NCBI GenBank assembly: GCA_027314025.1
Contig: DAHVCP010000026.1
Coordinates: forward strand, 129,237-193,236
Reading direction: 5' to 3'
Source: Acidobacteriota bacterium
Lineage (GTDB): Bacteria > Acidobacteriota > Terriglobia > Terriglobales > SCQP01
Length of the DNA stretch: 64,000 bases
In this document: positions 4,737-21,119 of the stretch, piece by piece
Numbering within the stretch: position 1 is the stretch's first letter
Layout of the letters: every line of letters begins with the position of its first letter
Made by a program: the position numbers and the translations under genes
The notes under the pieces: generated by a model
Database searches by the model: none
What the model was told of the DNA's origin: nothing
Seen by the model: only the letters and a program-made list of their open reading frames with translations

Positions 4737-4765
4737 AAAAAAAAGGGAGCACGCACGGCGCTCCC
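4737..4765 (-). terminator. Rho-independent terminator candidate for the minus-strand exosortase operon
   Basis: The minus strand reads GGGAGC-(9 nt)-GCTCCC followed by T8 (A8 at 4737-4744 on the plus strand). It lies about 175 nt downstream of the stop of the 4942-5328 gene. Confidence 0.45.
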
Positions 4766-4941
4766 TGAAGTGCAAATGTCTGGCGCGTTCGCGCCCTCGG
4801 CTAGTGCCCAAAAAAGTTCCGCGGGTTCGCCTCGTCGCGGTGGCGGTGGTGCGCAACACCTCCAATGCGCGCGTGCTGCTCTCCCCCTGGCGACCTCCGA
4901 GCGGCGGCAGCCTGGGCGATGCGAGGCGGCCGGCGCCGAAT

Positions 4942-8629: not shown

Positions 8630-9576
8630 ACGGGCTCGTGAGGTTCGAGGCGCGCGGCGCCCGGCGGCGGTTCCAGTGTGCGCCGCGATTGTTCTCCGCG
8701 CCGCAGCCAAAGCAAGAGCGGCCACAGCAGAACTAAGGCGATCAGGAAGAAGACAAAGCCGCCCTCCCGGTGCAACCGGCCGTAGAGAAAGCCGCGATTC
8801 ACATGCAAAGCCAGCAGGCAGAGGGTGCAGATGCGGATCGCGTTCTTCACCGCCGAAAAGGGAATCGCGACCAGCACCAGTACGGCGCGGCGCCAAGGCG
8901 AGCGCAAATAGAAATATCCAGCCAACAGGGCGGTGATGGCCAGGGCTTGGCTGGAGCGGATGCTGCTGCATTCCTTGGCGACGTGGATCGTAATGGTGGG
9001 AATAAAGAGGTCAAACCCTTGCCGGAAGACCGGCACGCCCAAGACGCCGAAGAACCAGGCGCACATGTGCGTCGAGCCCGCTTGTAGCCAAAAGATGGAA
9101 CGGTCGAGCAGAAATGGCGGAAACGGGATGATGAGCAGAAGAAACAGCCAGGCAAACAGCCCGGCCTGGAAGACCCGGCGGCCGTATATGGCGCAGACCC
9201 CGGCAAAAAGAAACAGCACCAGGCTGAGGGCGAGCAGGCTCAGGTGATCGGCATACGGCACCCGCCCCGCCCATCCCAGGGCCCAGCCCAGGCTCAGGGC
9301 GCCAACGGCGGCGAAACTCGCCGCCGCCAGCCGGTCGCGGCCAGGGTGCGCGAAGATGGATCGCCGCTCGGTCCACAGCAGGTAAATGGAGACGAACGGA
9401 ATCAGGGGAATGTAGGAACAAAAATCGTTGCCCAGGGCGAAGGCCAGCAGTTCGCGCAGGGGCTGCGCGAATAGGGCCAGCAGCGCCGCGAAATAAATTA
9501 TCAGGGCGCGGCGCCGCCGCGGGTCTGCGGCGGTGCTGGCGCGGGAGGCGGAAGGGGTTTCAGTGGCGGGGTTCAC
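8626..9576 (-). CDS. Exosortase (EpsH/Xrt family transpeptidase); subtype not assigned
   Basis: A polytopic membrane protein with the exosortase active-site region VAKECSSIRS and a downstream NAIRI...LHV. GTG at 9576 was chosen as the start; the ORF-track N-terminus is Arg/Pro-rich junk overlapping the upstream gene. Confidence 0.75.
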   Translation of the reverse strand: MNPATETPSASRASTAADPRRRRALIIYFAALLALFAQPLRELLAFALGNDFCSYIPLIPFVSIYLLWTERRSIFAHPGRDRLAAASFAAVGALSLGWALGWAGRVPYADHLSLLALSLVLFLFAGVCAIYGRRVFQAGLFAWLFLLLIIPFPPFLLDRSIFWLQAGSTHMCAWFFGVLGVPVFRQGFDLFIPTITIHVAKECSSIRSSQALAITALLAGYFYLRSPWRRAVLVLVAIPFSAVKNAIRICTLCLLALHVNRGFLYGRLHREGGFVFFLIALVLLWPLLLWLRRGEQSRRTLEPPPGAARLEPHEPV

Positions 9577-9619
9577 GGCGAGGGGCGGTCTCAATGCTGG
9601 GGCGGTGGTACTCGCGCAG

Positions 9620-10663
9620 CTAGCGCGGAGACGAAGCGCCGGAGCGGGCGTCCACCATCGGGGCGGATGCCAGAGCCGGGGTGGTCGCCATCGGCCGCGC
9701 CGCCAGATAGTCGAGCCAGTTCTGGTACAACCGTACCGCATCCACCGCCCAGTTGCATTCGAGCTGCGCGGCGATGGGGCCGTCCGGGAACTCGGCGAGC
9801 AGCGCGGGATCGGGGCGCGCCAGCGCCTGCCGCTCGAATGCCGCCAAGGACCGCGTGGATTCGGGATCAAAGTAGTTGTGCGGCAGCGACGGGTAGTCCG
9901 GGCGCTCGCCGCGCAGAAAGCGCCGCACGTCGCGCCGGTATTCCTTGAGCAGCGTGGCGGCGTGATATTCCGGATGGCCCTGGAGGTGGACGAACAAACT
10001 GCGGCCGCGCGGCTTGACGAACAGGCCCGTGCCGGCCCCCGGCGCGTGGGTCAGGACGGTGTAGCCATGGAGCGCGAGATCGGCTTGCCGCAGATCATTC
10101 CAGCGCGAGTGGGGAAAGTAGACGGTGGGACGGGCCCCGCGCGTCAGCGGGTGCGTCTGCGCCACCTGCTCGGCAAACACGCCGATGCGCTTCCGGGCCA
10201 GCGGCTGGCGCGGGATCCCGCTTTCCTGCAAGACGGCGGCATGGGCCGCCAGGCAGGACAAAACCGCCGAGTGCGTGTGGCTCTCGGCCCAGCGCAGCAG
10301 CTCCACGAGTTCCGGCCAATACGCCTCGGCCCGCAGATCTGGCTGCAAGGGCTCGGCGCCCGTGATGATCACGCCGTCATAGCTGCGGTTGAGCAGCTCG
10401 GCAAGGCTGAAATACGCGTGGTCCAGCCGGGCTCGCGCCTCCGGCCCGCGCGGCACCGCCGGCAGATAGTGAAACGCCAGCTGCACCGGCCGCTCCCCGG
10501 CCGCCGCCGTGAGCAGTGCGGTGAACTGCTCCTCGGTGTCGGCCAACGCGGCGTCCGGCATGTTATTGACCAGCGCAATGCGGAGGCCGGCGCGGGCCGG
10601 GCCAGTGGCCCGCCCACGCGGGGTGGGGCGCGACGATGGCGGATGCTCAATGGCGACGGGCAT
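9620..10663 (-). CDS. metA: Homoserine O-acyl(succinyl/acetyl)transferase, MetA family
   Basis: Motifs are LRIALVNNMPD, a catalytic-Cys region (SAVLSCLAAHAA) and LQGHPEY. The start was reset to MPVAIEH at 10663. Confidence 0.75.
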   Translation of the reverse strand: MPVAIEHPPSSRPTPRGRATGPARAGLRIALVNNMPDAALADTEEQFTALLTAAAGERPVQLAFHYLPAVPRGPEARARLDHAYFSLAELLNRSYDGVIITGAEPLQPDLRAEAYWPELVELLRWAESHTHSAVLSCLAAHAAVLQESGIPRQPLARKRIGVFAEQVAQTHPLTRGARPTVYFPHSRWNDLRQADLALHGYTVLTHAPGAGTGLFVKPRGRSLFVHLQGHPEYHAATLLKEYRRDVRRFLRGERPDYPSLPHNYFDPESTRSLAAFERQALARPDPALLAEFPDGPIAAQLECNWAVDAVRLYQNWLDYLAARPMATTPALASAPMVDARSGASSPR

Positions 10664-10767
10664 GGCAGACTCGCTGGCCCCCTGCGAGATGGGCGTATGG
10701 GTGGGGTCGTCAGCGCGGATCGGGAGACCCGCCGCATGCCGGGAGACCGGCGCCCGGCCCGCAATCG

Positions 10768-11757
10768 TTAGTAAGCGCCGGAGACGATGTTGTGCAGCGG
10801 AGCGGATTGCAGATAACGCCGGATCTGGGCGGCGGCAAAGCGCATGGCGCGGACCATGAACTCCGGGCTGGATGCGGCGACATGCGGCGTAATCAGCACG
10901 TTCGGCGCCCGCCACAGCGGATGATCCGCGGGAAGCGGTTCCGGATCCGTCACGTCCAGGGCGGCACGGATCCGGCCCTGGCGCAGCTCGGCGACCAGCG
11001 CTTCGGTGTCAACCACGGCGCCGCGTGCGGCGTTCACTAACAGCGCCCCGCTCCGCATCCGGGCCAGCTCCGGCGCGCCAAGTAGGTGTCTGGACTCCGG
11101 GGTGAGGGGCACGGTCAGGATGACCACATCCGCCAGCGGCAGTAATCGGCGCAGCTGCGTGGCGGGCCAAATGCCCGGGCGAGCGCGGCGCGCAACCCTT
11201 AGGATCCGGGTGCGAAATGGCGCCAGGAGGCGCTCAATCTCGGCGCCAATCGCCCCGTATCCCACGATCAGAACGGATTTTCCGCGCAACTCCTCAAGCC
11301 GCACGGGCGGATAGCAGGGCGGTGCGTCGGGAAGTAAAGTCCGAAACCGAGTATCCGATTCTCCCCGGCGTTTCCAGGCGGCGTCCCGCTGGATATCTCC
11401 ATAGAGCGGAAGATATTTCAGCGACGCCAGAATCGCGGTCAAAACCCATTCGGCTGTCGCCACGGTATGAACGCCCCGCGCGTCGCAGACGACAATCCCC
11501 GGGGGAGCCAGCGGCAGCAGCCAGTCCACGCCCGCGAGTACGGATTGAATGACCCGCAGGCCGCGCAGGCGCGGCAGGGTTATTTTGACGTCCTCGGCAT
11601 AGGGCGGGGCAATCCAAAACTCGACGCGGACTGCCGTCTGCGGCGGGCATCGCAGCCGCCGTAGCTGGATGCCTGACGGGAGGGCGCTCAGCAGCGCGGG
11701 CGTGACTGCCGCGGAAACCCCAACCGCGAGTTTGCTGCGCGATGGCACCTTCCCCAA
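10768..11757 (-). CDS. D-isomer-specific 2-hydroxyacid dehydrogenase
   Basis: An NAD-binding motif (VGYGAIGAEI) plus LLVNAARG, DVTDPEP and ITPHVAA signatures. Confidence 0.8.
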   Translation of the reverse strand: MGKVPSRSKLAVGVSAAVTPALLSALPSGIQLRRLRCPPQTAVRVEFWIAPPYAEDVKITLPRLRGLRVIQSVLAGVDWLLPLAPPGIVVCDARGVHTVATAEWVLTAILASLKYLPLYGDIQRDAAWKRRGESDTRFRTLLPDAPPCYPPVRLEELRGKSVLIVGYGAIGAEIERLLAPFRTRILRVARRARPGIWPATQLRRLLPLADVVILTVPLTPESRHLLGAPELARMRSGALLVNAARGAVVDTEALVAELRQGRIRAALDVTDPEPLPADHPLWRAPNVLITPHVAASSPEFMVRAMRFAAAQIRRYLQSAPLHNIVSGAY

Positions 11758-11762
11758 GCCGC

Positions 11763-13280
11763 CTAGCCTGCATGCGCCGCGGAAAGCAGCGCGCGCAGCG
11801 CCTCCTTGCGAATCTTGCCGGTCGGCGTCAACGGCAGGGCTTCGATCTCGATCATCCGCGTGGGCTGCTTGTAGTGGGCCAGGCGCGGCCGTAACCAGGC
11901 GGCGATTTCGGGCAGCGGTAAGGGGCTTTCAACGGGCTGGAGAAAGGCTAGAATTTCTTCCCCCCCCGCCGCGCCCGCCGTGGGTTCGGCCAGAACCGCG
12001 GCGCGCTGAATGGCAGGATGCTGCTCCAGCACGGCCTCAATTTCCGCCGGATAGACATTGAAGCCGAATCGGAGGATCAGTTCCTTGGTTCGGCCCAGCA
12101 AATACAGCAAGCCGTCTTGCCGGCTGCCCAGATCCCCGGTGTGAAACCAGCCGGCTTGGTCCACCACGGCGGCGGTTTCCGCCGGTGAGCGGTAATACCC
12201 CAGCATGAGGTTGGGACCGCGGACCCAGATCTCGCCGGCTTCCCCCTCCGGCAGCGCCCGTCCGGCCGAATCCGTGATCTGGACCTCGACGCCAGGGTAG
12301 GGCCGGCCAACCGAGGTGTCTTGGCGAGGCGTGTCCAGCCGCGTCGCGGAGATGCCCGGTGAGCATTCCGTGATGCCGTAGCCGTTATGGAGCACACGTT
12401 CGAGCAAGGCCTCGGTTTGCCGCTTGGTTTCGATCGGGAGCGGGGCCGAGCAGGAGGACAGCAAGCGCAGCCGCGGCGCTTCCACCCGTTCCAGACCGCG
12501 GTATCGCGCATATTCCACCAGTTGGGCGAACATCGCGGGCGCGCCGATCCAGACCGTAATGGCGCGTTGGCGCAGCCACTCGAGGGTGGTCACTGGCTCC
12601 GTGCGCGGGGGGATGTCCACGCAGGCTCCGGCTGCAAGCCCCGCCAGCAGCACCAGCGACAGACCGCTCGAATGGGTCAGGGGCAGGCCGCCCAGCAGAC
12701 GATCCTCGGATTGAAAGCTCCGGATTTCGGCTGCCGCGCGCGCCGCGAAGATCAATCCGCCGTGCGAGAGCATGACGCCGCGCGGCGTTCCCGTGGTTCC
12801 CGACGTATAGAGGACCGCGCCCACGCGACTGCTGGGGTCCGCGGCCACCGGTTCGGGCGCGGCCGCCGGATCAAGCGGGCTGGCTGCGACCTCGCCCAGG
12901 GTTGCGACCGGATCATAGCGCGCATGGAAATGCTGGGCGTGCATCTCCGCGCGGCGGGAACGGGTGAAGACCATGCGCCGCGGACGGGCGTGCTGGGCGA
13001 CGGCTTCGATTTCCGCCGTGGCCAGCCGGGCGTTGACCAATACCGGCCAGGCGTCGAGCCGCGCGGCGGAGAAGAGCAGGGCCACGTAGGCGCGGCAATT
13101 GTCACTGACCAGCAGCACCCGGTCGCCGGGCCGCACGCCCAACTCCGCCAGCCATGCCGCCGCGGCGTTCACGGCGGCGTGCAACTCGCCGTAACTCCAT
13201 GCGCCGGCCGCGTCCGCTAGGGCGGGGGAGTCCGGGGCCGAATGCACCCAGGGATCAATGAGATCAGAGATGCGGTTCAT
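11763..13280 (-). CDS. Adenylate-forming (AMP-dependent) acyl/aminoacyl ligase
   Basis: Motifs are YTSGTTGTPRGV, GYGITE, HTGDLG and PTGKIRK. Its ATG overlaps the stop of the upstream MetY-like gene (ATGA at 13277-13280). Confidence 0.85.
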   Translation of the reverse strand: MNRISDLIDPWVHSAPDSPALADAAGAWSYGELHAAVNAAAAWLAELGVRPGDRVLLVSDNCRAYVALLFSAARLDAWPVLVNARLATAEIEAVAQHARPRRMVFTRSRRAEMHAQHFHARYDPVATLGEVAASPLDPAAAPEPVAADPSSRVGAVLYTSGTTGTPRGVMLSHGGLIFAARAAAEIRSFQSEDRLLGGLPLTHSSGLSLVLLAGLAAGACVDIPPRTEPVTTLEWLRQRAITVWIGAPAMFAQLVEYARYRGLERVEAPRLRLLSSCSAPLPIETKRQTEALLERVLHNGYGITECSPGISATRLDTPRQDTSVGRPYPGVEVQITDSAGRALPEGEAGEIWVRGPNLMLGYYRSPAETAAVVDQAGWFHTGDLGSRQDGLLYLLGRTKELILRFGFNVYPAEIEAVLEQHPAIQRAAVLAEPTAGAAGGEEILAFLQPVESPLPLPEIAAWLRPRLAHYKQPTRMIEIEALPLTPTGKIRKEALRALLSAAHAG

Positions 13281-14605
13281 GCCGGTGGGTTCGCCGCGGC
13301 GAGGGCCTGCTCCAAGTCCGCCCGGAGATCGTCAATATGCTCGATGCCCACGCTCAAGCGCAGCATCTCCGGCGTGACGCCCGCCTGGGCTTGCTCCGCG
13401 GGGGTCATTTGCCGATGCGTGGTCGAGGCGGGATGGCAGGCCAGCGACTTGGCGTCGCCGAGGTTGACCATTTGCCGGAACAGGCGCAGGGCATTGACGC
13501 ATTTCTTGCCGGTCGCAAAGCCGCCCTTCACGCCGAAGGTCAGCAAGGAGCAGTCGCGGTCGCCAAGGTAGCGCCGCGCCAAGGCGTAGCTTGGGTGTTC
13601 GCGGAACCCCGTGTAGCTGACCCAGGCGACTTGGGGATGGCTCGCCAGGAACTCCGCTACCTGCCGGGCGTTGGCGACATGGCGCTCCATGCGCAGGGCC
13701 AGGGTTTCGATGCCCTGTAGGATCAAGAACGCGTTGAACGGCGCCAGCACCGCGCCGCCGTTGCCCAGGCCGACGGTACGGCAGCGGGCGGCGAAGGCCG
13801 CCTCGCCAAAGTGGTCGGTGTAGACCACGCCGTGATAGGCCGGATCCGGCCGACTGAACTGGGGAAACCGATCCGCGTGCGCCCGCCAGTCAAAGCGCCC
13901 GCCGTCCACGATCAAGCCGCCGAGCGTGGTGCCATGGCCGCAGAGAAACTTGGTTGCCGCATGCAGGACGATATCGGCGCCATGCTCGATCGGCCGCAGC
14001 AAAATGGGCGTGGCCACGGTGTTGTCCACGATCAGCGGTACCCCATGGCGGTGGGCAACCGCGGCCAAGGCGGCAAGATCGGCGACGTTGCCGGCTGGAT
14101 TGCCGACGCTTTCGCAGAACACGGCGCGGGTACGGGCGTCCATCCGCCGCTCGACCTCCGCGGCGGCATCGCTTGCGGCGAAGCGCGCCTCGATGCCCTG
14201 TTGGGAGAAGACGTGCGCGAACAGCGTATAGGTGCGGCCGTAGAGCTGCGGCAAGGAGACGAAGTTGTCTCCCGCCGCGACCAGATTGGCGAGGGCGTAT
14301 TGCACGGCGGTCATGCCTGAGCTGACCGCCACCGCGGCGACGCCGCCCTCGAGCGCCGCGACGCGCTCCTCCAGCACCGCATTCGTGGGATTGCCCAGCC
14401 GGCTGTAGATGTGGCCCTCGACCTCCAGGTTGAACAGTGCGGCCCCGTGCTCGGCGCTGTCAAAGCCGTAGGCGACGGTTTGGTAGATGGGTACGGCGAC
14501 GGCATGGGTCGCCGGATCGCCGCCAAACCCGGCGTGCAGGGCGATGGTCTCGGGGTGGAGCTCGCCTGGTTTCCGCCCGGGCGCGTTGTCAGGATTTAGG
14601 GCCAA
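13277..14605 (-). CDS. metY: PLP-dependent O-acetylhomoserine (thiol)-lyase / gamma-replacement enzyme (MetY / Cys-Met-metabolism family)
   Basis: Motifs are ETIALHAG, AVPIYQTVAYGF, SSGMTA, VDNTVATP and ATKFLCGHG (PLP lysine). The start is uncertain: TTG 14605 was chosen, and GTG 14638 is an alternative. The ORF-track N-terminus overlaps the upstream gene and is junk. Confidence 0.75.
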   Translation of the reverse strand: MALNPDNAPGRKPGELHPETIALHAGFGGDPATHAVAVPIYQTVAYGFDSAEHGAALFNLEVEGHIYSRLGNPTNAVLEERVAALEGGVAAVAVSSGMTAVQYALANLVAAGDNFVSLPQLYGRTYTLFAHVFSQQGIEARFAASDAAAEVERRMDARTRAVFCESVGNPAGNVADLAALAAVAHRHGVPLIVDNTVATPILLRPIEHGADIVLHAATKFLCGHGTTLGGLIVDGGRFDWRAHADRFPQFSRPDPAYHGVVYTDHFGEAAFAARCRTVGLGNGGAVLAPFNAFLILQGIETLALRMERHVANARQVAEFLASHPQVAWVSYTGFREHPSYALARRYLGDRDCSLLTFGVKGGFATGKKCVNALRLFRQMVNLGDAKSLACHPASTTHRQMTPAEQAQAGVTPEMLRLSVGIEHIDDLRADLEQALAAANPPA

Positions 14606-14612
14606 GGGATTG

Positions 14613-15734
14613 TTACCGTGCGGCAATTTGGACGTCACGAGGCCGGATCTGGCGCGCCCGTTCGAGTTCCAGCCGCAGGGCGGCGGCGGTTTCGGCGACG
14701 TACGGCTCCACCAACATCGTGGCGGGATAGAGCGGCAGAATGCAGGATTCGGCGCCACCACCAGCCAACTGCTGCCAATCCGCGGCGGCCTGCCGCAGAC
14801 TGCGGTATTGCCATTTGGGCCGAAATTCGGTGATCCGTCCCGGATAGGGCAGGGCCCGGTACTCGGCGCAGGCGCGGTCGTTGGCTGCCCACACGGCAGG
14901 GAGCGGCGCGCGCGGGGCCTTCGATCCGGGAGCCCGCAGCCGGTCCCGCCACACCGGAACGCGGGCACGAAGGATCTTGACTTTTTCGCGCCACAGACGC
15001 CGCCGGTCCGAGGCATTGAGGCGGGCGAAGGCCTGCGCGTGAAAGCTCAACCGCTCCAGCTGCTTGCGGAGACGGCTCCAGGCCGTCGCTGGCGGGAGCG
15101 CGTTCCAGTTTCTGGTGTCGAGCAATCCGAGGAAAGCCACGGACTCGCCCGCGCGGGCGAGTTGCTGGGCCACTTCGTAGGCGATGGTGCCGCCGCCGCA
15201 GTAGCCAGCCAGATAATACGGCCCTGTGGGCGCGACGGAGCGTATCGCCGGGAGATATGCAGCCGCCATCGCCTCCACGCTTTGAGCCGGCTCGACTTCG
15301 CCGTCGAGGCCCGAGGCGCGGACGCCGTACACCGGCTGGTCGGGGCCCAGTCGCTGCGCGAGATGGCGGTAGCCGAAGACGTCGCCGCTCGCGTCGTGCA
15401 GCAGGAACAGGGGCGGCCAGGCGCCCGCCGCTTGTAGCGGAACGATGCGCGGAGGTAGGGCGGGGGCGCGATCCGCTAGCAGCGCGGCAAGCGAACTGAC
15501 CGTTGGCGCCTCGAACAGAACCACCAAAGGCAGCCTACGCCCGAACTCCCGTTCGATGCGGGAAAACAAGGCCACCGCTAGCGAGGAATCGCCGCCCAGG
15601 TCAAAGTAGTTGTCATCGGGGCCGACGCTGTCCAGGCCCAGCACCTCGCGCCAAATGGCGGCGAGCCGGGTCGCGGCGTCCCCAGGCGCGCCGGTGGGCG
15701 TGGCCGGCGTCGAGCGCTCGAGGTTTGCGGGCAT
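14613..15734 (-). CDS. Carrier protein (PCP/ACP) fused to an alpha/beta-hydrolase thioesterase domain
   Basis: The phosphopantetheine motif is FDLGGDSSLA (Ser50). The TE-type domain has LFLLHDASGD and the nucleophile elbow LAGYCGGG, where Cys179 (TGC at 15198-15200) replaces the usual Ser. Confidence 0.75.
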   Translation of the reverse strand: MPANLERSTPATPTGAPGDAATRLAAIWREVLGLDSVGPDDNYFDLGGDSSLAVALFSRIEREFGRRLPLVVLFEAPTVSSLAALLADRAPALPPRIVPLQAAGAWPPLFLLHDASGDVFGYRHLAQRLGPDQPVYGVRASGLDGEVEPAQSVEAMAAAYLPAIRSVAPTGPYYLAGYCGGGTIAYEVAQQLARAGESVAFLGLLDTRNWNALPPATAWSRLRKQLERLSFHAQAFARLNASDRRRLWREKVKILRARVPVWRDRLRAPGSKAPRAPLPAVWAANDRACAEYRALPYPGRITEFRPKWQYRSLRQAAADWQQLAGGGAESCILPLYPATMLVEPYVAETAAALRLELERARQIRPRDVQIAAR

Positions 15735-15737
15735 ACG

Positions 15738-17225
15738 CTACGAATTTTGTCGGGCCGTTCCCGCCGGCTGGTGCGTGGCGCCCGCGGCGGGAACGACGTA
15801 ACGCAACTGGTCGTCGTGGATCTCCGCGTACGCGATTCGGGCGCGCTCGGCCCCATCGCCCGCGATGCGCCAAGCGGCGCCGTCGTGGTGCAAGGTCATG
15901 GCGCGCCGCTGGCGCCACCAATGGCTGATTTCTCGCGGCAGGGCGAACCAGCGCTCGCCCTGGCGATGTTCCGCAGCCAGCATCTCCCCAAGACGTTGGA
16001 AGATATCCCGCGCCCGTTGCTCGATGATGTAGTCGGGATGGATCGAGAAACACATCACGCCGTGGGCGGCGGCGGTGGCGGCTAGCTGCTGTTCCCAGAT
16101 TTGGGTGGAATAGTCGCCGAGCATGTGGAACAGGATGTAATCCTGCGCCGCCGTCCCCGGGATCTCGACCATGTCGCCCAGGAAGTATGGGCGAACCGCG
16201 CAGCATCCTCCCGCTTGGGGATGAAAATGCGCGCCGTTGGGCAGGGACATGTCGTAATCGAAGCGCAAGGCGCCGAACCAGTCCAAATTCCGGTAGAGCA
16301 CCGCGGAACGAAAGCCCTGGGCCCCCCATTGGCGGCCATAGGCGTTGATGCGCTCGGCGCGGCGCAAAAACTCGTCGCGGCTGCTGAACAGGCGGCCGTC
16401 GTGGTTCAGGTCATGAACATTGATTTCAAAGCCGCGGTCGCGGATGCTCGCCAGCCACACCTCCGGGACGTCATACCGATGCTCGGGAATGATCTGGAAC
16501 GAGGCTTTCATGCCGTAGCGTTCATCCAGATCCATGAGGGTTGGGGTGAAGTCGCGGCCGGCGGCGGTCTCCACGTCGTGGGTCATGGCGACCGCCGAGG
16601 AATGGCCATCGGGCCAAAACCAAATGAACGGAATCCGGTCCACGCCGCGGGCGCGCATGGCCAGCAGCAGCAGCGCTTCGAGCGTATGCTCGACCGTCGC
16701 ATCAATCGGCCAGGCTGGGAAACTCGGCGCCGCATTCCGCTTGCGGCCCACCACAGAGCGCTGCAGATGCTTGCGGATGCCGACGGGCATTAGTGGCCGG
16801 AGGGTGTAGTAGGCCTGGGCCGCGGCCCGCTTCCAGACGGGGCCGGAGCCGGCGGGCTGTCCGGCGCCAGGATAGCGTTCGAAGAGCAGATTGCTGATGG
16901 CCTCGGCGGGATCGAACGGCAGACGGCATTCGCCGTCGCCGATCGCCACTGCTTTAAGCGCGTCCACGCGTGCGTCCTCGGGCCGCGGCGCCGCGCCGCC
17001 CGAAGCCAAGCCACCAAACAAGGTAATGTCCGGCCCGAGCCGGAAAAACCCCGCCTCGCCGGCGTCACCGGCGGGCGGGCGCAGGACGCCCATGTCATCG
17101 GGACATCGGAAGTGTTCTTGCAAAAGCCCCTTCATCGTAAGTGCAGGCCCTTCTTTAGCGGCATTGATCGCCGCCGGCGGTAAGTCCAACTGAAGCGGTG
17201 TTCCGTTGCTGATCGGCTTTGGCAT
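15738..17225 (-). CDS. Large polysaccharide-deacetylase-like (CE4-related) protein with an N-terminal domain of unknown function
   Basis: The central region (AVAMTHDVE...ASFQIIPEH...INVHDLNHDG) resembles the deacetylase fold. The roughly 180-aa N-terminal part was not recognised. Confidence 0.45.
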   Translation of the reverse strand: MPKPISNGTPLQLDLPPAAINAAKEGPALTMKGLLQEHFRCPDDMGVLRPPAGDAGEAGFFRLGPDITLFGGLASGGAAPRPEDARVDALKAVAIGDGECRLPFDPAEAISNLLFERYPGAGQPAGSGPVWKRAAAQAYYTLRPLMPVGIRKHLQRSVVGRKRNAAPSFPAWPIDATVEHTLEALLLLAMRARGVDRIPFIWFWPDGHSSAVAMTHDVETAAGRDFTPTLMDLDERYGMKASFQIIPEHRYDVPEVWLASIRDRGFEINVHDLNHDGRLFSSRDEFLRRAERINAYGRQWGAQGFRSAVLYRNLDWFGALRFDYDMSLPNGAHFHPQAGGCCAVRPYFLGDMVEIPGTAAQDYILFHMLGDYSTQIWEQQLAATAAAHGVMCFSIHPDYIIEQRARDIFQRLGEMLAAEHRQGERWFALPREISHWWRQRRAMTLHHDGAAWRIAGDGAERARIAYAEIHDDQLRYVVPAAGATHQPAGTARQNS

Positions 17226-17243
17226 GCCGGCTGTGCGCCGGCG

Positions 17244-18401
17244 TTAGGCAATATGCCGGTACAATAGTTCGCCGGCGGCAATCAATAACGGCTGCGGCAA
17301 ATAGCTGGCTAACGCCAGTGCCGGTTTCCGCGCCAGCCGGCGCCAACGGGCGCGGTGCGGCGTGGCGAGGCCCGAACTCGGGAAGCGGAAATAGGTCAGC
17401 TGCTGCGGTTGGGCGTTCCAGTGCTGCTTAAACGCCAGCAACCCGGTGTTGTCCGTGGCCGAACGGCCCAGTTCCAGCGTGCGGGCGCCGCGCCGCCGGC
17501 CCTCTTCGATGGCCCGCCACATCAGCAGCGGCATGGCGCCCAGGGCATGCCAGGCCGCATCCGATGCCCCGTACTTGTAGGTCAGGCGCTCGCGGAATTG
17601 CAAGGTCACGATCGCCGCGATGGCCCTTCCCTGCTTGCGCGCGACATATACCGTCAGCGCGTCGCCACACGCCTCCGCCAAGTGGCGAAACCAGGCCCGC
17701 GGCTGGGGTGGCAGTCCGTGCCGCCGGCGGGTGAGCGCGTGGAGAGCAAAAAAGGCATCCAGCAACGCCGGCGACCGGCCCATCTCGACATCCAGCTGTT
17801 CCCGCTCCGCCCGGCGAATGCGGCGCTGCACGCAGTCCTTGTGGAAGCTGCGCAGCAGGGGCTCGCGTGCGCCGGCGATGGGCGCGATGTGCAGCGCATA
17901 CTCCGCCGAAGGGCTCCATTCCCTATCGCCCGCGTCGTCCCCTGGCGCGCGCAAAGGACGAATCTCGATGTAGCCACGCCGGTCGCGGCACGCGGCGGCG
18001 ATGAGCCGCTGCCAGCTGTTGCCTGCGTCGTTCGGGGCGCATGCCAGCAACGGCTGGCAATGGTCGGCGAAGGGAACGGAAACCATCCGCTCCCGCGTAA
18101 GCCAGGTGCGGACGCGGCAGAAGACCAGCCCATCGGACAACGGCTCGCCCGGACTGGCGGAGGTATAGGCGATGGGTTCATATCCATAGCAGGCGCGCAG
18201 CGCGCGCAACCACGCCGTGGTGTGGAAGACGCCGGCGTCGGGATGCCACGCCAGCAGTTGCTCCCAGCGCGGGTCGCTGAGAGGATCGATTTGCCGCGCC
18301 TCCCCGGCCGACGCCGCCCTGGCGACGGCGATGGGCGCCGCGCTGGGGGCTCCGGCGGCGGCGGGATTTCCGCTCAGGCTGGGGGTGGCCATCGCATCCA
18401 T
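17244..18401 (-). CDS. FemAB-like / GNAT-fold aminoacyl- or acyl-transferase (PEP-CTERM-locus type)
   Basis: The start was reset to MDAMATPS at 18401. The size is about 385 aa. The pattern FHTTAWLRAL...VSVPFADHC...YVARKQGRAIAAIVTLQF...YKYGASD...LLMWRAIEEGRRRG...LELGRS resembles the FemAB-related proteins found beside exosortases. The call is by resemblance only. Confidence 0.5.
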   Translation of the reverse strand: MDAMATPSLSGNPAAAGAPSAAPIAVARAASAGEARQIDPLSDPRWEQLLAWHPDAGVFHTTAWLRALRACYGYEPIAYTSASPGEPLSDGLVFCRVRTWLTRERMVSVPFADHCQPLLACAPNDAGNSWQRLIAAACRDRRGYIEIRPLRAPGDDAGDREWSPSAEYALHIAPIAGAREPLLRSFHKDCVQRRIRRAEREQLDVEMGRSPALLDAFFALHALTRRRHGLPPQPRAWFRHLAEACGDALTVYVARKQGRAIAAIVTLQFRERLTYKYGASDAAWHALGAMPLLMWRAIEEGRRRGARTLELGRSATDNTGLLAFKQHWNAQPQQLTYFRFPSSGLATPHRARWRRLARKPALALASYLPQPLLIAAGELLYRHIA

Positions 18402-18432
18402 CGCTGGTGACTGCTTGCAAACGTCCTCGCGC

Positions 18433-19683
18433 TTAAAATCCGCGCTTGGCGAACAGATACGGCAGCAGGAAAATCTCGACCAAGCCCGGCCATGGATCGC
18501 GGCGGGAAAAGACGGCTTCAGTGTTGGCCCGGCGCAGGGAGCGCCAATAGGCGCTCCAGCGCTGCCGGCCGGCCCAGGCATCCAGCAGGCCGACGGGCAG
18601 ATCGGTGGCCAGGCGCACCCAGCGGACGCCGGCGCGAGCGCGGCCCTGGGTGGTGGGCAGGCCGAGTTGATCGGCGAACAGCAGATAGGGAAAGTCCACG
18701 CCCGCCGCCGCTCCAAGGCTGTGATACCCCCACGTGCGGCCGTTCACGTCCAGCAATTTATAGCGGCCATCACGGGGATCCAGCTTGTACTCCATCTCCA
18801 CCAGGCCGTAGTAGCCGATGGCGCGCAGGAACCGCTCGGAGACTTCCTCCAGGTGCGGTGCTTCCACGGTTTCCACATAGGTGCTGGCGCGGCCGAACTC
18901 GGGGGGATGCTGGCGCAGGCGGCAGACGGTCATGCTGCCCAGCGCGCGGCCATCCTTGAACATGGCGCAGTAGGCGAATTGCTGGCGGCCGTCACCGGGA
19001 ATCAATTCCTGAATCATGACCTCTTCGGCGCCGACCTGCGCGGAGGCCCGGCGGAAGGCGTGGCGGAGTTCCTGGCGCGAGTTGGCGCGCCACGCCTTGA
19101 CCCGGGTGGCGTAAAAGAAATGCTCCTTGATGGCGGGCTTGACCACATATGGCGGGTCGGCGGTGACGGCTTCCAGGTCGTCCTCGCTCCGCACCAGCCA
19201 CGTGGCGGGGGCGGCGATATCGAGCTCGCGGGCGCGGGCGTAGGTGTTGCGCTTGTCCCAGATCCATTGGACCGCGTCCCACTCCGGCGTGGCCACCCGA
19301 AACCACGGCGCCAGTTCGGCGCGATGGCGGGACAGCGCCGCCACGGTTTCATCGCGGGTGGGAAACAAGACCCAACCGTCGAGGCCGCGGCGCCGGCCGA
19401 GTTCGAGGAGGCAGGCAATGGTGGCGGCTTCATCGCGCAAATTGGCGACATGGACGGCGCCCGAGGCGTAGCGGGAGTAGCGGGCGACGGAATGCTCATT
19501 GTCGAGGACCAGCACCGGCACGCCCCGGCGACCGAGGCTGCGGACAATGCCCAAACCCTGGTAATCGCCGCCGATCACCACCGCGCCGGTAACGCCCACC
19601 CCACCGGAGTTGGGTGAAGGCGCCGGCGCGGCGGCGGAGGGGCGGACCGGGGGTTCGGACACAGCGATCAGGCGCATTGCCAT
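18433..19683 (-). CDS. ATP-grasp carboxylate-amine ligase
   Basis: Motifs are PYVVKPAI, VMIQELIPG and GLVEMEYKLDPRDGRYKLLDVNGR (ATP-grasp Mg/ATP motifs). The 5' end overlaps the upstream gene by 16 nt. Confidence 0.7.
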   Translation of the reverse strand: MAMRLIAVSEPPVRPSAAAPAPSPNSGGVGVTGAVVIGGDYQGLGIVRSLGRRGVPVLVLDNEHSVARYSRYASGAVHVANLRDEAATIACLLELGRRRGLDGWVLFPTRDETVAALSRHRAELAPWFRVATPEWDAVQWIWDKRNTYARARELDIAAPATWLVRSEDDLEAVTADPPYVVKPAIKEHFFYATRVKAWRANSRQELRHAFRRASAQVGAEEVMIQELIPGDGRQQFAYCAMFKDGRALGSMTVCRLRQHPPEFGRASTYVETVEAPHLEEVSERFLRAIGYYGLVEMEYKLDPRDGRYKLLDVNGRTWGYHSLGAAAGVDFPYLLFADQLGLPTTQGRARAGVRWVRLATDLPVGLLDAWAGRQRWSAYWRSLRRANTEAVFSRRDPWPGLVEIFLLPYLFAKRGF

Positions 19684-20882
19684 TGGGGCGCCAGCCGGGC
19701 GCGGTAGCGAGGCGCGAAATACGCCAACAGCGCCGGTCCGGCGTACCGGGTTCCGGAGACAAACTGCATGATGGGGCCCACCGTGCGCGCGGCGGGGGCG
19801 CCGAGGATGTGCAGACCGGGAACCGAGGTTTCAAAACCCGGACCCAGCACCGGATAGCCCTGGACGCGGCGAATCCGGCTGACGAGCTCCGGGGCAAGAA
19901 ACGCGTAACGGGCGATGTCCACCTGGTAGCCGGTGCCGAGCAGCAGGTGATCCACCTGGCGATCGGTTCCGTCGCTGAGCCGCAGGGCGACGCGGCCGCC
20001 TTTCTCAGCGACCGAGGTTACCTCGTAGCCCAAGCGCAGGGGAACCTCGCGCAGGCGGTCCACCAGCCAGCGGGCGCCGGCGGGACGCACGGCGCGGCGC
20101 CAAAGGCGGTCGCGCAGGCCGCGCGGCAGGGTATTGAACAGGGCGGGGCGGGCCAGCAGTTGGCTGAGGCCGGCGGGGCCGACATCGGTGGGGGCATAGA
20201 GCAGCTTCGGCACCAGGGATCCCATTTGGTGATGAAACAGCTTGGAGGCGCGGCCTTGCAACCAGTGGATGACGCGGTCGCGGGCAATGACCTCGACTTG
20301 GGCGCCGGATTCATGCAGCAGCGCGGCCGATTCCAGCGCACTCTGGCCGCCGCCGACGATCAGCACGCTGCGGCCGGCGAAACGGCCCAAATCGGGATGC
20401 TCGGCGGTGTGCGAAACCAAATCGGGAGGGAGTTGGGTAAACCGCTCCGGGCGGCGCTCGAAGCCGCGAATGCCGGCGGCGACGATGACGCGCTCGGCTT
20501 CCGCCACTTCGCCGTCGGCGAGGCGGAGGCGGAAACCTTTCGGCGCGGCCTCGACGCTGGCAACCTGGCGCCGGTCCACGCTGGGTACGGCGCGGCGCTG
20601 GAACCACTCGCCATAGGCGATGAAGCGATCGAGCGGAACGGGAGAGGGCACCGCGCCCTCATCGGCGGCGAAAGCGTCTAGGCCCAAGCGCGCGGCTTGC
20701 GCGGCCGGCGCGGCGATATGCGTCGCGGGCCAATTGGAGCGCAGGAGCATGCCGCGCGGCATGCTGCGCCAAAACGACATGGGCTCGCCAAAAATGCGAA
20801 CCTGCAACCCGGGAATAGCGGCCAAATGGGCCGCCGTGGACAGGCCGTAAGGGCCAGCGCCAACAATGGCAATTTCGCTCAT
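19668..20882 (-). CDS. FAD/NAD(P)-binding oxidoreductase, class-B flavoprotein-monooxygenase-like
   Basis: There are two dinucleotide-binding motifs: IVGAGPYG at the N-terminus and LIVGGGQSA at mid-protein. Confidence 0.6.
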   Translation of the reverse strand: MSEIAIVGAGPYGLSTAAHLAAIPGLQVRIFGEPMSFWRSMPRGMLLRSNWPATHIAAPAAQAARLGLDAFAADEGAVPSPVPLDRFIAYGEWFQRRAVPSVDRRQVASVEAAPKGFRLRLADGEVAEAERVIVAAGIRGFERRPERFTQLPPDLVSHTAEHPDLGRFAGRSVLIVGGGQSALESAALLHESGAQVEVIARDRVIHWLQGRASKLFHHQMGSLVPKLLYAPTDVGPAGLSQLLARPALFNTLPRGLRDRLWRRAVRPAGARWLVDRLREVPLRLGYEVTSVAEKGGRVALRLSDGTDRQVDHLLLGTGYQVDIARYAFLAPELVSRIRRVQGYPVLGPGFETSVPGLHILGAPAARTVGPIMQFVSGTRYAGPALLAYFAPRYRARLAPQWQCA

Positions 20883-20993
20883 GGGAAAATCACCCGGACA
20901 GGCGATGTAGCTCCGCCCTGTCAGTTCAGGCGGCGGGATCCAACTGCGGCAACGGATCCTCCGGGGGCGCGCGCCGGAAGCGGAATAGGGCTT

Positions 20994-21008
20994 GCAAGTG
21001 GTTGACCA
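20994..21008 (-). promoter_or_regulatory. Candidate sigma-54 (-24/-12) promoter of the 16-kb modification/exosortase operon
   Basis: The minus strand reads TGGTCA-ACCAC-TTGCAA. It lies about 110 nt upstream of the ATG at 20882, in an 818-nt non-coding gap. Confidence 0.6.
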
Positions 21009-21103
21009 ACGGGATAGTTGCGGCGAACTCTTTGAAAATGCTTATCCTTTGGGCCGGGCCGTTGGGCCTGGGGGTGATGCGAGGTAACACCCGTGCTGTA
21101 GCG

Positions 21104-21119
21104 GGGAAAATGATTTCCC
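21104..21119. promoter_or_regulatory. Perfect inverted repeat GGGAAA-ATGA-TTTCCC about 100 nt upstream of the 20994-21008 promoter; possible activator/UAS site
   Basis: Seen directly in the sequence. The position relative to the -24 element is typical for enhancer sites. No shared motif with the other promoters was found. Confidence 0.25.

Follow-up and report, generated by a model that had tools for sequence, protein, structure and literature searches.

A composite nine-gene block with MetA- and MetY-family genes precedes the exosortase gene in an acidobacterial exopolysaccharide locus

The DNA analysed here (64,000 nucleotides, hereafter the window) comes from a soil Acidobacterium (Terriglobia) and carries a Wzx/Wzy exopolysaccharide (EPS)/exosortase locus. 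Encoded in the window are a priming glycosyltransferase, Wzx, Wzy and two UDP-glucose dehydrogenases, together with a sugar aminotransferase, a 3-dehydrogenase, a chain-length determinant and a tyrosine kinase. Nine tightly packed open reading frames on the minus strand span positions 9620-20882, and they form a composite of two modules, M1 (genes 1-4) and M2 (genes 5-9). All nine reading frames reported in an earlier note are present, and profile scores or a fold match bear out the families that it gave them. The features are listed below in the order of transcription from the minus strand, with the single plus-strand gene last.

24356-25837, minus strand: aspartate kinase of the upstream EPS operon (TIGR00657, 253.5 against a cutoff of 208.7; start uncertain)
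21104-21119, minus strand: palindrome GGGAAATCATTTTCCC, about 100 nt upstream of the -24/-12 site
20993-21008, minus strand: sigma-54-type -24/-12 promoter candidate TGGTCAACCACTTGCA (TGGTCA-N5-TTGCA), 111 nt 5′ of the first ATG
19668-20882, minus strand: gene 1, M1, flavoprotein of class-B monooxygenase type with two dinucleotide-binding regions, "FMO2" (PF13738, 63.5 against a cutoff of 30)
18433-19683, minus strand: gene 2, M1, ATP-grasp ligase (PF15632, 30.2 against a cutoff of 29.1)
17244 to about 18401, minus strand: gene 3, M1, FemAB-like GNAT (Acetyltransf_6) transferase (PF13480, 76 bits; start by homology)
15738-17135, minus strand: gene 4, M1 anchor, CE4-like protein with an N-terminal beta domain (start from alignment; Pfam score below cutoff, 21.2 against 23.1)
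14613-15734, minus strand: gene 5, M2, peptidyl-carrier-protein (PP-binding) and thioesterase didomain, PCP-TE (profile search)
13277-14605, minus strand: gene 6, M2, MetY-family PLP gamma-replacement enzyme, O-acylhomoserine sulfhydrylase-like (TIGR01326, 606 against a cutoff of 495)
11763-13280, minus strand: gene 7, M2, adenylate-forming (AMP-binding) acyl ligase, FadD/MatB/4CL-like (profile search)
10768-11757, minus strand: gene 8, M2, D-isomer-specific 2-hydroxyacid dehydrogenase (profile search)
9620-10663, minus strand: gene 9, M2, MetA-family homoserine O-acyltransferase (NF003776, 365 against a cutoff of 358)
8626-9594, minus strand: exosortase (TIGR02602, 109.4 against a cutoff of 105.6)
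6365-8629, minus strand: PrsT TPR lipoprotein (TIGR02917, 325 against a cutoff of 312), overlapping the exosortase gene by 4 nt
5442-6218, minus strand: CE4 polysaccharide deacetylase, downstream of PrsT
4942-5328, minus strand: lipoprotein with an FN3-like domain, a Ser-rich linker and a LAGC lipobox, the last gene of the operon
4744-4766, minus strand: intrinsic terminator, a 9-bp stem followed by T8
3582-4706, plus strand: sigma-54 activator with AAA+ and HTH domains and without a receiver domain (profile search)

When gene starts are placed by homology, the spacings within the block come to -16, +31, +108, +3, +7, -4, +5 and +104 nt along the transcript. The -4 junction is the ATGA overlap at 13277-13280, between the MetY and ligase genes, to which the earlier note had drawn attention; it is conserved in relatives. 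The same note had read the block as continuing into the exosortase, PrsT, CE4 deacetylase and FN3 lipoprotein genes. Indeed, these genes lie on the same strand and are followed by the sole convincing terminator, and terminator-like matches within the block are not above chance (15 found, 13.2 expected). Thus the nine genes through the FN3 lipoprotein gene, which is kept downstream in loci L001 and L003, probably form one co-transcribed operon. Judged by its profile scores, the exosortase is of an unclassified subtype. NCBIfam cutoffs rule out both XrtC (179 against 300) and XrtA (122 against 208).

The sigma-54 promoter candidate that had been proposed ahead of the block is judged to be real and is kept in two relatives as TGGCCAACCACTTGCA (L012) and TGGCCGGGAACGTGCA (L014). 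All relatives compared in this work are metagenome-assembled. The palindrome at 21104-21119 is conserved in the same two loci. Searches with it return 4 matches at up to 3 mismatches, compared to 0.38 expected, and a second copy at 3482-3497 lies 5′ of the sigma-54 activator gene, whose product is 95-99% identical in L001-L006. The palindrome is therefore a candidate binding site for the activator of the locus. The window further contains a PEP-CTERM gene that has a sigma-54 site of its own.

The block had been described as one module. However, in most of 80 related genomes or loci no Met genes accompany genes 1-4, and so the block is not a single module. FMO2 is 45-63% identical to the flavoprotein adjoining CE4-like genes in 46 of the 80 loci, but its identity to the flavoprotein ahead of MetY in the type I modules described below is just about 38%. 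The CE4-like gene is likewise accompanied by the ATP-grasp gene in 46 of the 80 loci and by the FemAB-like gene in 38, and an exosortase gene lies within 10 kb in 21. Against TIGR03019, the FemAB-like protein scores 104.8 (cutoff 260). The AF2 model of the CE4-like protein (pLDDT 84.5) matches a CE4 fold of the ArnD/polysaccharide-deacetylase kind, with Foldseek returning 3rxz (E 2.7e-9) and ArnD 8t0j. This protein has at least 7468 homologous clusters, every one annotated "hypothetical".

The claim that MetA, MetY, an adenylating enzyme and a carrier protein belong to one dedicated module has fared better. The same nine-gene order followed by an exosortase gene recurs in L007/L014 and L012, with partial copies in L005 and L010, although MetA is just 58-67% identical among these lineages. 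Among 27 metagenome loci anchored on the MetA subfamily and with enough flanking sequence, MetY and the ligase are found in all 27, the flavoprotein in 26, a TPP enzyme in 24, and PCP-TE and BCAT in 19 each. These findings support the view that the MetA/MetY pair is part of a conserved module and no chance neighbour.

These are loci of what we call the type I module, in which flavoprotein-MetY-MetA-(ACP)-ligase faces TPP enzyme-PCP-TE(Ser)-BCAT-PCP-TE(Cys). This arrangement is widespread in Acidobacteria, and genes 5-9 (type II) are a rare, clade-restricted and reduced derivative of it, rather than a variant of the XrtA-associated ligase/ACP/decarboxylase set as had been suggested. The type I proteins are homologous to those of the window (MetA 47-58%, MetY about 70-78%, ligase 46-54%, with 46-49% in one comparison, and Cys-type PCP-TE 43-51% identity), and both types share glycan or exosortase surroundings and a recurrent aspartate kinase. 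The window lacks the YpdA-like flavoprotein, TPP enzyme, BCAT, small ACP and Ser-type PCP-TE of type I. Unlike type I, it has a D-2-hydroxyacid dehydrogenase, confined to type II among all loci fetched, and its M2 genes are co-directional behind M1 and ahead of the exosortase gene. The type II copies of MetA, of MetY and of the ligase each resemble one another more than they do any type I copy, and therefore the cassette evolves as a unit. Where type II has the dehydrogenase, type I has BCAT (NF009896, 462 bits) and the TPP enzyme (NF005760, 730 bits), a swap that points to a probable 2-oxo-acid intermediate. We found no paper or NCBIfam model describing the module.

MetA-subfamily loci usually lie within glycan or exosortase loci. 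The modules of L009, L094 and L176 are set amid glycosyltransferase or sugar-nucleotide genes, and, of 27 type I loci, 6 have an exosortase gene within 10 kb. In L176 one adjoins the module. Every type II locus has its exosortase gene 22-190 nt downstream of the MetA-like gene, and for the window and the relative nearest to it the gap is 22-25 nt. In favour of carrier use, an A-PCP-TE(Cys) fusion adjoins a CE4-like gene in L035, and a phosphopantetheinyl transferase gene adjoins the module in L176.

Catalytic residues of the MetA- and MetY-like proteins are intact. The Cys-His-Glu triad of the MetA-like protein aligns to E. coli MetA and is invariant in the alignment of homologues. The MetY-like protein, which keeps its PLP Lys, has 8sf5 as its top match (484.6 bits) and is 84-93% identical among type II relatives. 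No feature of its sequence separates a carbon or nitrogen nucleophile from sulfide. The aspartate kinase noted earlier in the adjacent operon is confirmed by its TIGR00657 score. Its stop codon shares an ATGA with the start codon of the UDP-glucose dehydrogenase gene (translational coupling), and homologues recur near Met modules in L012, L014, L080, L107, L111-114, L134 and L168.

The best family matches of the ligase are fatty-acyl, malonyl and 4CL-type ligases (FadD/MatB-like). It lacks the Asp at the A4 "FDxS" position (Asp235 equivalent) that binds the alpha-amino group, and it is therefore probably an acyl rather than an aminoacyl ligase; the earlier label of aminoacyl ligase is unlikely to be right. 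In the PCP-TE, the thioesterase nucleophile is a Cys (motif GYCGGG). The phosphopantetheine Ser is among the invariant positions, which include S50, H113, C179 and E343, and H232 is present in 24 of 26 sequences. Alignments reveal no C-terminal GxH (the canonical histidine), in place of which H232 and E343 are candidate catalytic partners. In Foldseek, the AF2 model (pLDDT 83.7) matches the EntF PCP-TE 3tej (E 5e-21) and AB3403.

From these observed families, residues, gene orders, overlaps, promoter matches and co-occurrences, we infer a chemistry whose every step, nucleophile and acceptor is conditional. We assign a probability of about 0.45 to a sigma-54 operon carrying two tailoring modules, of which M2 would load a homoserine-derived D-2-hydroxy acid on its carrier for the exopolysaccharide. 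The MetA-like enzyme would O-acylate homoserine, the supply of which the dedicated upstream aspartate kinase could raise. The MetY-like enzyme would then swap the acyl group at C-gamma, with sulfide as the default nucleophile to give homocysteine. The amino acid might pass through the 2-oxo acid to a D-2-hydroxy-4-substituted butyrate by action of the D-2-hydroxyacid dehydrogenase. The FadD-like ligase would adenylate this non-amino acid and charge the carrier domain, and the fused Cys-thioesterase would hand the acyl group on. Its likeliest acceptor would be a hydroxyl or an amino sugar within the repeat unit of the polysaccharide. On the same polymer, the CE4/ArnD-like deacylase of M1 could free an amine for subsequent re-acylation or aminoacylation by the ATP-grasp and FemAB-like enzymes.

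Several observations count against this scheme. The MetY-like protein resembles bona fide sulfhydrylases and is unusually conserved, and may simply make homocysteine. The window cassette has no aminotransferase to join the MetY product to the dehydrogenase, and no dedicated PCP-to-glycan acyltransferase was identified. Because M1 occurs without M2 in most loci, the two may not share a function. Finally, the Cys-thioesterase lacks the canonical GxH histidine; it may or may not be catalytically competent, and it could act in transfer, cyclisation or hydrolysis.

Might MetA and MetY instead be ordinary homocysteine/methionine genes lying in or captured by an EPS locus, with the ligase, dehydrogenase and PCP-TE unrelated? 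Both proteins pass biosynthetic-family cutoffs with catalytic residues kept, MetY is conserved like a housekeeping enzyme, and no second metA or metY copy is found within the 64-kb window. Regardless, linkage to the ligase in 27 of 27 loci, the glycan or exosortase setting and the nearby dedicated aspartate kinase argue that these are no stray methionine genes. Across distant Acidobacteria the flavoprotein, TPP enzyme, PCP-TE and BCAT are also linked at high frequency, the MetY/ligase overlap is conserved, and a sigma-54 promoter common to EPS and exosortase genes would be odd for an essential amino-acid pathway. We regard this explanation as improbable, the least favoured of those considered.

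A diffusible small molecule, which the Cys-thioesterase might release as a gamma-(thio)lactone or some other cyclic or strained compound and whose genes would be merely co-regulated with the EPS and PEP-CTERM genes, is unlikely but the best of the alternatives. A standalone ligase with a PCP-TE is an NRPS-like arrangement, terminal PCP-TE didomains of NRPSs give the best structural matches, and a 4-substituted 2-hydroxy- or 2-amino-butyryl thioester is well placed to close a 5-membered ring. Moreover, among solved thioesterases a nucleophilic Cys is known solely in SulM, ObiF1 and AB3403 (PMC11298585). However, the module is consistently set amid glycosyltransferases, sugar-nucleotide enzymes and exosortases, it shares a single operon with EPS genes on one side and the exosortase gene on the other, and no module-specific exporter was seen. 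Somewhat more doubtful is a product that serves as, or modifies, the acceptor or anchor for the cleaved PEP-CTERM proteins in the exosortase reaction, or that acylates these proteins. The close spacing of MetA-like and exosortase genes in every type II locus, the PrsT/exosortase overlap, the exosortase genes of the type I and CE4-like loci counted above and of L176, and the PEP-CTERM gene of the window favour such a role. Yet most type I modules have no exosortase gene within 10 kb, and Acidobacteria have many exosortase paralogues, such that proximity may reflect EPS islands alone.

The block partly resembles several known systems. The XrtA-associated set comprises an AMP-forming ligase, an ACP, a PLP decarboxylase, two hydrolases, FemAB TIGR03019, deacetylase TIGR03006, amidotransferase TIGR03108 and PrsT. 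In the window, too, the exosortase gene is accompanied by genes for an adenylating enzyme, a carrier, a PLP enzyme and proteins of hydrolase fold. FemAB-like, CE4 and AsnB-like genes are found in the vicinity, and PrsT is a true member. However, the accessory proteins of the window fall below the XrtA-associated cutoffs (FemAB as given above; deacetylase 37.7 against 276), its exosortase is not XrtA, its PLP enzyme is a MetY gamma-replacement enzyme rather than a decarboxylase, and it adds MetA, the D-2-hydroxyacid dehydrogenase and the Cys-nucleophile PCP-TE fusion.

In Dlt D-alanylation, a standalone adenylating enzyme (DltA) loads a small D-acid on a carrier (DltC) to esterify teichoic acids. 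The window would likewise pair a standalone adenylating enzyme with a carrier protein to load a small D-acid for a cell-surface polymer, but it lacks DltB (MBOAT) and DltD, its ligase lacks the amino-binding Asp, its carrier is fused to a thioesterase and its substrate would be made de novo from homoserine. The butirosin AHBA (BtrI/J/K/O/V/H/G) and Vibrio cholerae O1 tetronate (RfbK-O) systems build carrier-tethered side chains for sugar N-acylation. Their ATP-dependent ligase is of the ATP-grasp or AMP-forming kind and works with an ACP, a flavin monooxygenase and a PLP enzyme to make a 2-hydroxy-4-substituted butyryl group that is finally borne by an amino sugar. The window may be comparable, and its EPS genes include the sugar aminotransferase and 3-dehydrogenase. 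Whereas AHBA starts from glutamate, the window would start from homoserine via MetA/MetY, and no BtrH-type acyltransferase was recognised in the window.

Fub7 and CndF are MetY homologues that perform non-sulfur gamma-substitution on O-acylhomoserine from a dedicated acyltransferase. They share the fold and family of the MetY-like protein, with Fub7 structures scoring 445.8 bits compared to 484.6 for the true sulfhydrylase, but they belong to fungal pathways without a carrier protein or polysaccharide setting. Among Cys-nucleophile thioesterases, SulM and ObiF1 form beta-lactams and beta-lactones, and AB3403 also uses Cys (PMC11298585; see also PMC6668435). AB3403 (GWCFGG) is the best PDB sequence match of the window PCP-TE. 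Although these three are terminal domains of multi-module NRPSs with the canonical His, and the window protein is free-standing without GxH, all have a nucleophile-elbow Cys in place of Ser and the PCP-TE didomain fold.

The nine minus-strand genes of the block (positions 9620-20882), as named in the earlier note, are all present, and profile searches bear out the family claimed for each. Gene starts were set from alignment to relatives together with inspection of start codons.

Genes of the block, as assigned by profile searches (scores against cutoffs in brackets)
19668-20882, minus strand, Pyr_redox_3 flavoprotein
18433-19683, minus strand, ATP-grasp protein
17244 to about 18401, minus strand, Acetyltransf_6/FemAB-like transferase
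15738-17135, minus strand, weakly CE4-like protein of 465 aa
14613-15734, minus strand, PP-binding and thioesterase didomain (PCP-TE)
13277-14605, minus strand, MetY-type PLP enzyme (TIGR01326, 606 vs 495)
11763-13280, minus strand, AMP-binding ligase
10768-11757, minus strand, D-2-hydroxyacid dehydrogenase
9620-10663, minus strand, MetA-type acyltransferase (NF003776, 365 vs 358)

Successive junctions measure -16, +31, +108, +3, +7, -4, +5 and +104 nt, the -4 junction being an ATGA overlap at 13277-13280. On the same strand, the block is followed by genes for an exosortase, PrsT (in a 4-nt overlap with the exosortase gene), a CE4 deacetylase of 258 aa and a lipoprotein of 128 aa that has an FN3-like domain. 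The sole strong intrinsic terminator (4766-4744) lies after the lipoprotein gene, and terminator-like matches within the block show no excess over shuffled expectation. The exosortase exceeds the cutoff of the generic model TIGR02602 (109.4 against 105.55) and falls below those for XrtC (179.4 against 300) and XrtA (121.8 against 208), which leaves its subtype unclassified, while PrsT exceeds that of TIGR02917 (325.1 against 312.2).

The rest of the window, whose G+C content is 67-69% and whose genes within 0-53.5 kb lie nearly all on the minus strand, is a Wzx/Wzy exopolysaccharide locus. Specifically, it encodes a chain-length determinant, a tyrosine kinase, an UpxY antiterminator, a priming glycosylphosphotransferase, two UDP-glucose dehydrogenases, a PseC/LegC-like sugar aminotransferase, a UDP-GlcNAc-3-dehydrogenase-like oxidoreductase, several glycosyltransferases, Wzx, a Wzy-like protein, an AsnB-like amidotransferase and an acyltransferase-3 protein. 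The aspartate kinase that had been claimed for the neighbouring operon is real by profile search (24356-25837, minus strand). Its stop codon overlaps the start of a UDP-glucose dehydrogenase gene (ATGA at 24356-24359), and a sugar-nucleotide and glycosyltransferase operon is an unusual site for an amino-acid pathway kinase. Four further large ORFs of about 470-690 aa have coding-like codon bias (526-2064, 26427-28178 and 56024-57436 on the minus strand, and 29157-31235 on the plus strand). None has a profile match, in Pfam and NCBIfam for 526-2064, 26427-28178 and 29157-31235 and in NCBIfam alone for 56024-57436. Inside the exopolysaccharide locus, the only large gene on the plus strand is the ORF at 29157-31235.

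The sigma-54 promoter motif proposed upstream of the block is present as TGGTCAACCACTTGCA at 20993-21008, and both this -24/-12 site and an upstream palindrome, GGGAAATCATTTTCCC (21104-21119, minus strand), are kept in two of the related loci fetched from other genomes and metagenomes (L012 and L014). The palindrome has the form GGGAAA(T/G)CATTTTCCC and precedes the -24/-12 site by some 100 nt, and its copies in L012 and L014 are each near position 6120. A second copy occurs at 3482-3497 (plus strand), upstream of the gene for a sigma-54 activator (3582-4706, plus strand), where chance would give an expected 0.38 matches. Judged from sequence, the palindrome is a candidate enhancer site for this activator, which carries AAA+ and HTH domains without a receiver domain. 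A small, secreted PEP-CTERM protein ending in ...VSAPEPASWLLLAAGLGALGLAARRRR is encoded at 54292-54642 (plus strand), and about 60 nt upstream of its gene is a sigma-54-like site with a good -24/-12 match (TGGTACTGTACTTGCA, 54217-54232, plus strand). This protein is probably an exosortase substrate and a member of the same regulon. A weak copy of the palindrome is also found near its gene, at 53784-53799.

The non-coding stretch between the upstream glycosyltransferase gene and the cassette (20883-21700) is unusually long, at about 800 bp, and contains the promoter elements along with a few patches rich in A+T. The UpxY/RfaH-family antiterminator gene (50219-50842, minus strand; NF033644, 111.8 against 100) lies directly ahead of the gene for the priming glycosyltransferase. 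Thus, the locus appears to combine antitermination with sigma-54 control.

When MetA-like homologues were traced to their contigs and the neighbourhoods compared, the arrangement seen in the window, which we call type II, proved to be conserved. MetA clusters at 94, 67, 66 and 60% identity share the order dehydrogenase, MetA, exosortase, PrsT, CE4 deacetylase and FN3 lipoprotein, along with the same sigma-54 activator. All nine genes occur in the same order wherever contigs are sufficiently long (L007/L014 and L012), L005 and L010 being partial copies, and the 4-nt overlap of the MetY and ligase genes is preserved in L005, L007 and L010. The neighbourhood comparison called for by the earlier note therefore finds the MetA/MetY linkage conserved across type II lineages, down to 60% identity in MetA. 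L012, from 'Acidobacteria bacterium isolate clean272', is the closest relative, and the two sequences are collinear, with nucleotide identity of 90-94%.

Identity statistics were used to judge relatedness among type II loci. The minimum identity within type II and the maximum to any other homologue are 58% and 58% for MetA, 84% and 78% for MetY, and 71% and 54% for the ligase. Each protein is nearer its type II counterparts than other homologues, which indicates that the genes of the cassette evolve together; type II is a clade-restricted form. An AsnB-type glutamine amidotransferase gene lies between the PCP-TE and MetY genes in L012 (616 aa; 12573-14623) and in the more distant L018 (679 aa; 12369-14408). 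The corresponding junction is free of this gene in the window (14557-14652) and in three other type II lineages, where the two genes are 7-62 nt apart or overlap. This difference of about 1.95 kb is a recent, clean gain or loss.

The nine genes had been proposed to form one module, a view that counts of neighbouring genes lead us to reject. Among 80 loci anchored on the CE4-like gene, the flavoprotein (46/80), ATP-grasp (46/80) and FemAB-like (38/80) genes are frequent neighbours, followed by those for exosortase (21/80), PCP-TE (14/80), MetY (4/80), MetA (3/80) and the dehydrogenase (2/80). Thus, the first four genes constitute a module of their own, M1, that usually occurs without any Met gene. 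A scan with the CE4-like protein, taking one genome per species, yielded 294 relatives, nearly all from Acidobacteriota (Terriglobia and Bryobacterales). The 465-aa protein scores under the Pfam cutoff for PF01522 (21.2 against 23.1) and belongs to an unannotated family of at least 7468 clusters that has no Pfam model. Its AF2 model (pLDDT 84.5) matches enzymes of the CE4 fold, including 3rxz (E 2.7e-9), the lipid-linked-sugar deformylase ArnD (8t0j, 4.6e-6) and PuuE 3cl6. An alignment with its homologues reveals invariant HDVE, HDLNH and GGCC motifs and a beta-rich N-terminal domain with a conserved (Q)EHFRCPD. PDB sequence searches with the flavoprotein and ATP-grasp proteins returned weak, uninformative matches only.

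The Met genes, for their part, belong to a much larger, widespread and previously undescribed module. Most other MetA matches, at about 50-55% identity, come from Acidiferrales and other Terriglobia and are labelled 'homoserine O-succinyltransferase', and these are not lone genes. In three sampled neighbourhoods of this commoner type I module (L009, L092/93 and L094), the array flavoprotein, MetY, MetA, (85-aa ACP) and ligase faces a TPP enzyme, PCP-TE and class IV aminotransferase, with an ATP-grasp gene nearby. By profile score, the TPP enzyme belongs firmly to NF005760 (730 bits) and the aminotransferase to NF009896 (462 bits). Scanning metagenomes with MetA as anchor yielded 27 loci that extend for at least 7-8 kb to each side. 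In these, MetA is accompanied by MetY and the ligase without exception (27/27 each), by the flavoprotein in 26/27, the TPP enzyme in 24/27, PCP-TE and BCAT in 19/27 each, the small ACP in 9/27 and an exosortase in 6/27.

Many type I modules carry two PCP-TE paralogues, in the order TPP enzyme, PCP-TE(Ser), BCAT, PCP-TE(Cys). In one 8.4-Mb genome (L176) the array runs exosortase, UDP-glucose dehydrogenase, acyltransferase-3, phosphopantetheinyl transferase, PCP-TE(Cys), flavoprotein, MetY, MetA and ligase, and faces TPP-enzyme, FemAB-like, ATP-grasp and glycosyltransferase genes. Several type I modules, like type II ones, have a homologue of the aspartate kinase within 10 kb. Compared with type I, the window cassette lacks the YpdA-like flavoprotein, TPP enzyme, BCAT, small ACP and Ser-type PCP-TE, whereas the D-2-hydroxyacid dehydrogenase is, among the loci fetched, a feature of type II alone. 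Within the 64-kb window we found no second MetA or MetY, TPP enzyme, BCAT, small ACP or PPTase. The shared gene set and the missing type I partners together mark the window cassette as a reduced, rearranged relative of the type I module.

The MetA-like protein matches PF04204 (216.7 against 27) and, marginally, NF003776 (365.1 against 358). Its catalytic triad C137, H230 and E232, equivalent to C142, H235 and E237 of E. coli, is invariant in 15 sequences, and a Leu at the acyl-donor position (G111 in E. coli, E111 in B. cereus) is uninformative on the donor. The MetY-like protein scores 605.9 against 495.1 for TIGR01326, falls short of the equivalog NF004757 (644 against 790) and keeps the PLP-binding Lys, the Lys of its TKF motif aligning with that of 8sf5. 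It scores 484.6 bits to true sulfhydrylases, slightly above the 445.8 bits to Fub7. Since it groups with these sulfhydrylases and not with methionine gamma-lyases, we judge a gamma-lyase activity giving 2-oxobutyrate to be less likely. The dehydrogenase is D-isomer-specific by its NAD-binding domain (PF02826, 154.2 against 25.1) and reaches no equivalog cutoff in the NCBIfam search, its nearest solved structures being glyoxylate/glycerate and phenylpyruvate reductases.

The ligase belongs to the ANL superfamily (PF00501, 268 bits, and PF13193, 41.7 bits, both above cutoff). Its best NCBIfam match is the PRK06187 subfamily (322 against 476), with no equivalog, and its best matches overall are fatty-acyl, malonyl, feruloyl and 4-coumarate ligases and the LgrA A domains. 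The NRPS adenylation model TIGR01733 gives 200.6 against 317.4. Aligned to both LgrA A domains, the protein has Ser or Gly, within PLTHSSG, in place of Asp235 of the A4 motif 'FDxS', the residue that binds the alpha-amino group. These two results make an acid without an alpha-ammonium group the likelier substrate, and the proposal of an aminoacyl-activating ligase is rejected for want of Asp235.

The PCP-TE protein (PF00550, 67.9 bits; PF00975, 92.4 bits) has an invariant phosphopantetheine Ser50 in GGDS, and AF2 predicts for it (pLDDT 83.7) the fold of a standard NRPS PCP-TE didomain, with a Foldseek match to that of EntF (E 5e-21). Its thioesterase elbow reads GYCGGG, and Cys occupies this position in all 26 members of the Cys-type family, in which D206 is nearly invariant, H232 occurs in 24/26 and E343 is invariant. 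These 26 members show no Ser-His-Asp triad of the kind with a GxSxG elbow, and no conserved C-terminal GxH. The Ser-type paralogue, in contrast, has Ser, together with a histidine motif, GDH(L/F), that is absent from the Cys type. AB3403, the closest PDB match to the window PCP-TE by sequence, likewise has a Cys nucleophile. Among solved thioesterases, only AB3403, SulM and ObiF1 have one, SulM forming a beta-lactam and ObiF1 a beta-lactone (PMC11298585; PMC6668435). In L035, an A-PCP-TE(Cys) fusion adjoins a CE4-like gene, which supports adenylation onto the Cys-type carrier. In Ser-type carriers (L092, L094, L106, L143, L156, L168 and others), the phosphopantetheine Ser is often replaced (GGDP, GGDF, GGDA or GGDR), such that this carrier domain may have lost its function in many genomes. 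In the Cys-type paralogue the motif is always GGDS, GGNS or GGHS.

We class the cassette as a probable carrier-protein tailoring cassette in a surface-polymer and exosortase locus. Our main reading, to which we assign a probability of roughly 45%, is that a homoserine-derived hydroxy acid is loaded on the carrier and passed to the polymer on which M1 also acts; the chemistry is what we infer. In this scheme the aspartate kinase would increase the supply of aspartate-derived homoserine, which MetA would activate as an O-acyl ester. MetY would then replace the ester at C-gamma, by default with sulfide to give homocysteine, or possibly with another nucleophile. The amino acid would become a 2-oxo acid, a stage at which type I modules have their own aminotransferase and TPP enzyme, and the type II dehydrogenase would reduce it to a D-2-hydroxy-4-substituted butyrate. 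The Asp-less ligase would adenylate that acid and load the carrier, from which the Cys-thioesterase could transfer or cyclise it. The CE4/ArnD-like deacylase, ATP-grasp protein, FemAB-like GNAT and flavoprotein of M1 would act on the same polymer, and, to judge from the genes around the cassette, the acceptor may be a polymer of amino sugars and uronic acids.

Other outcomes can be drawn from the same genes. The module might make a small molecule that is released, which we regard as rather improbable, or it might serve in modifying the exosortase acceptor or PEP-CTERM proteins, which we think unlikely. MetA and MetY could instead be ordinary methionine genes, as their default annotation would have it, but the linkage of MetY and ligase in 27 of 27 loci and the sigma-54 control weaken this case, and we hold it quite unlikely. 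A more daring extension, offered as a long shot, is that a novel homoserine-derived thio- or hydroxy-acid, possibly closed to a (thio)lactone by the Cys-thioesterase, is the handle joining exosortase-processed PEP-CTERM proteins to the acidobacterial exopolysaccharide. If true, this would be the first molecular answer on the purpose of exosortase-associated ligase and carrier-protein genes.

In soil, Acidobacteria rank with the most abundant bacteria, and their exopolysaccharides shape soil aggregation; to our knowledge, the chemistry of these polymers is almost unknown. Under our main reading of a polymer-tailoring pathway, a single subfamily of the genes named 'homoserine O-succinyltransferase' and 'O-acetylhomoserine sulfhydrylase' is committed to a carrier-protein pathway of surface-polymer loci. 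Thousands of acidobacterial sequences carry the default methionine-biosynthesis annotation, which may mislead metabolic reconstructions made automatically. The underlying module occurs widely, has no annotation and lends itself to experiment, and its compact five-gene variant (MetA, MetY, dehydrogenase, ligase and PCP-TE) is a candidate for in vitro reconstitution. It also adds a large natural family of Cys-nucleophile thioesterases and offers a way to test what ligase and carrier-protein genes do beside exosortases, a question of long standing.

For the MetA/MetY/ligase/PCP-TE combination we found no NCBIfam model and no description in the searchable literature. Searches likewise returned nothing pairing exosortase with homoserine O-succinyltransferase or O-acetylhomoserine, nothing relevant on PEP-CTERM/exosortase gene clusters of Acidobacteria, and no biosynthetic cluster with MetA, MetY and a carrier protein. 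Of the named gene sets, the XrtA-associated one (ligase, ACP, decarboxylase and hydrolases, with FemAB and deacetylase) comes closest, and the cassette had been thought a variant of it. We reject that view, since none of these family cutoffs is reached (FemAB TIGR03019, 104.8 against 260.35; deacetylase TIGR03006, 37.7 against 276.2 for the 258-aa CE4 protein) and the exosortase scores below the XrtA and XrtC cutoffs. The 25 best families of the ligase, all at 189 bits or more, include no model for an exosortase-associated ligase. By analogy, the cassette may be mechanistically akin to Dlt D-alanylation, and also to the butirosin AHBA and V. cholerae tetronate pathways, in which carrier proteins are used to build 2-hydroxy-4-substituted butyryl groups for sugars.
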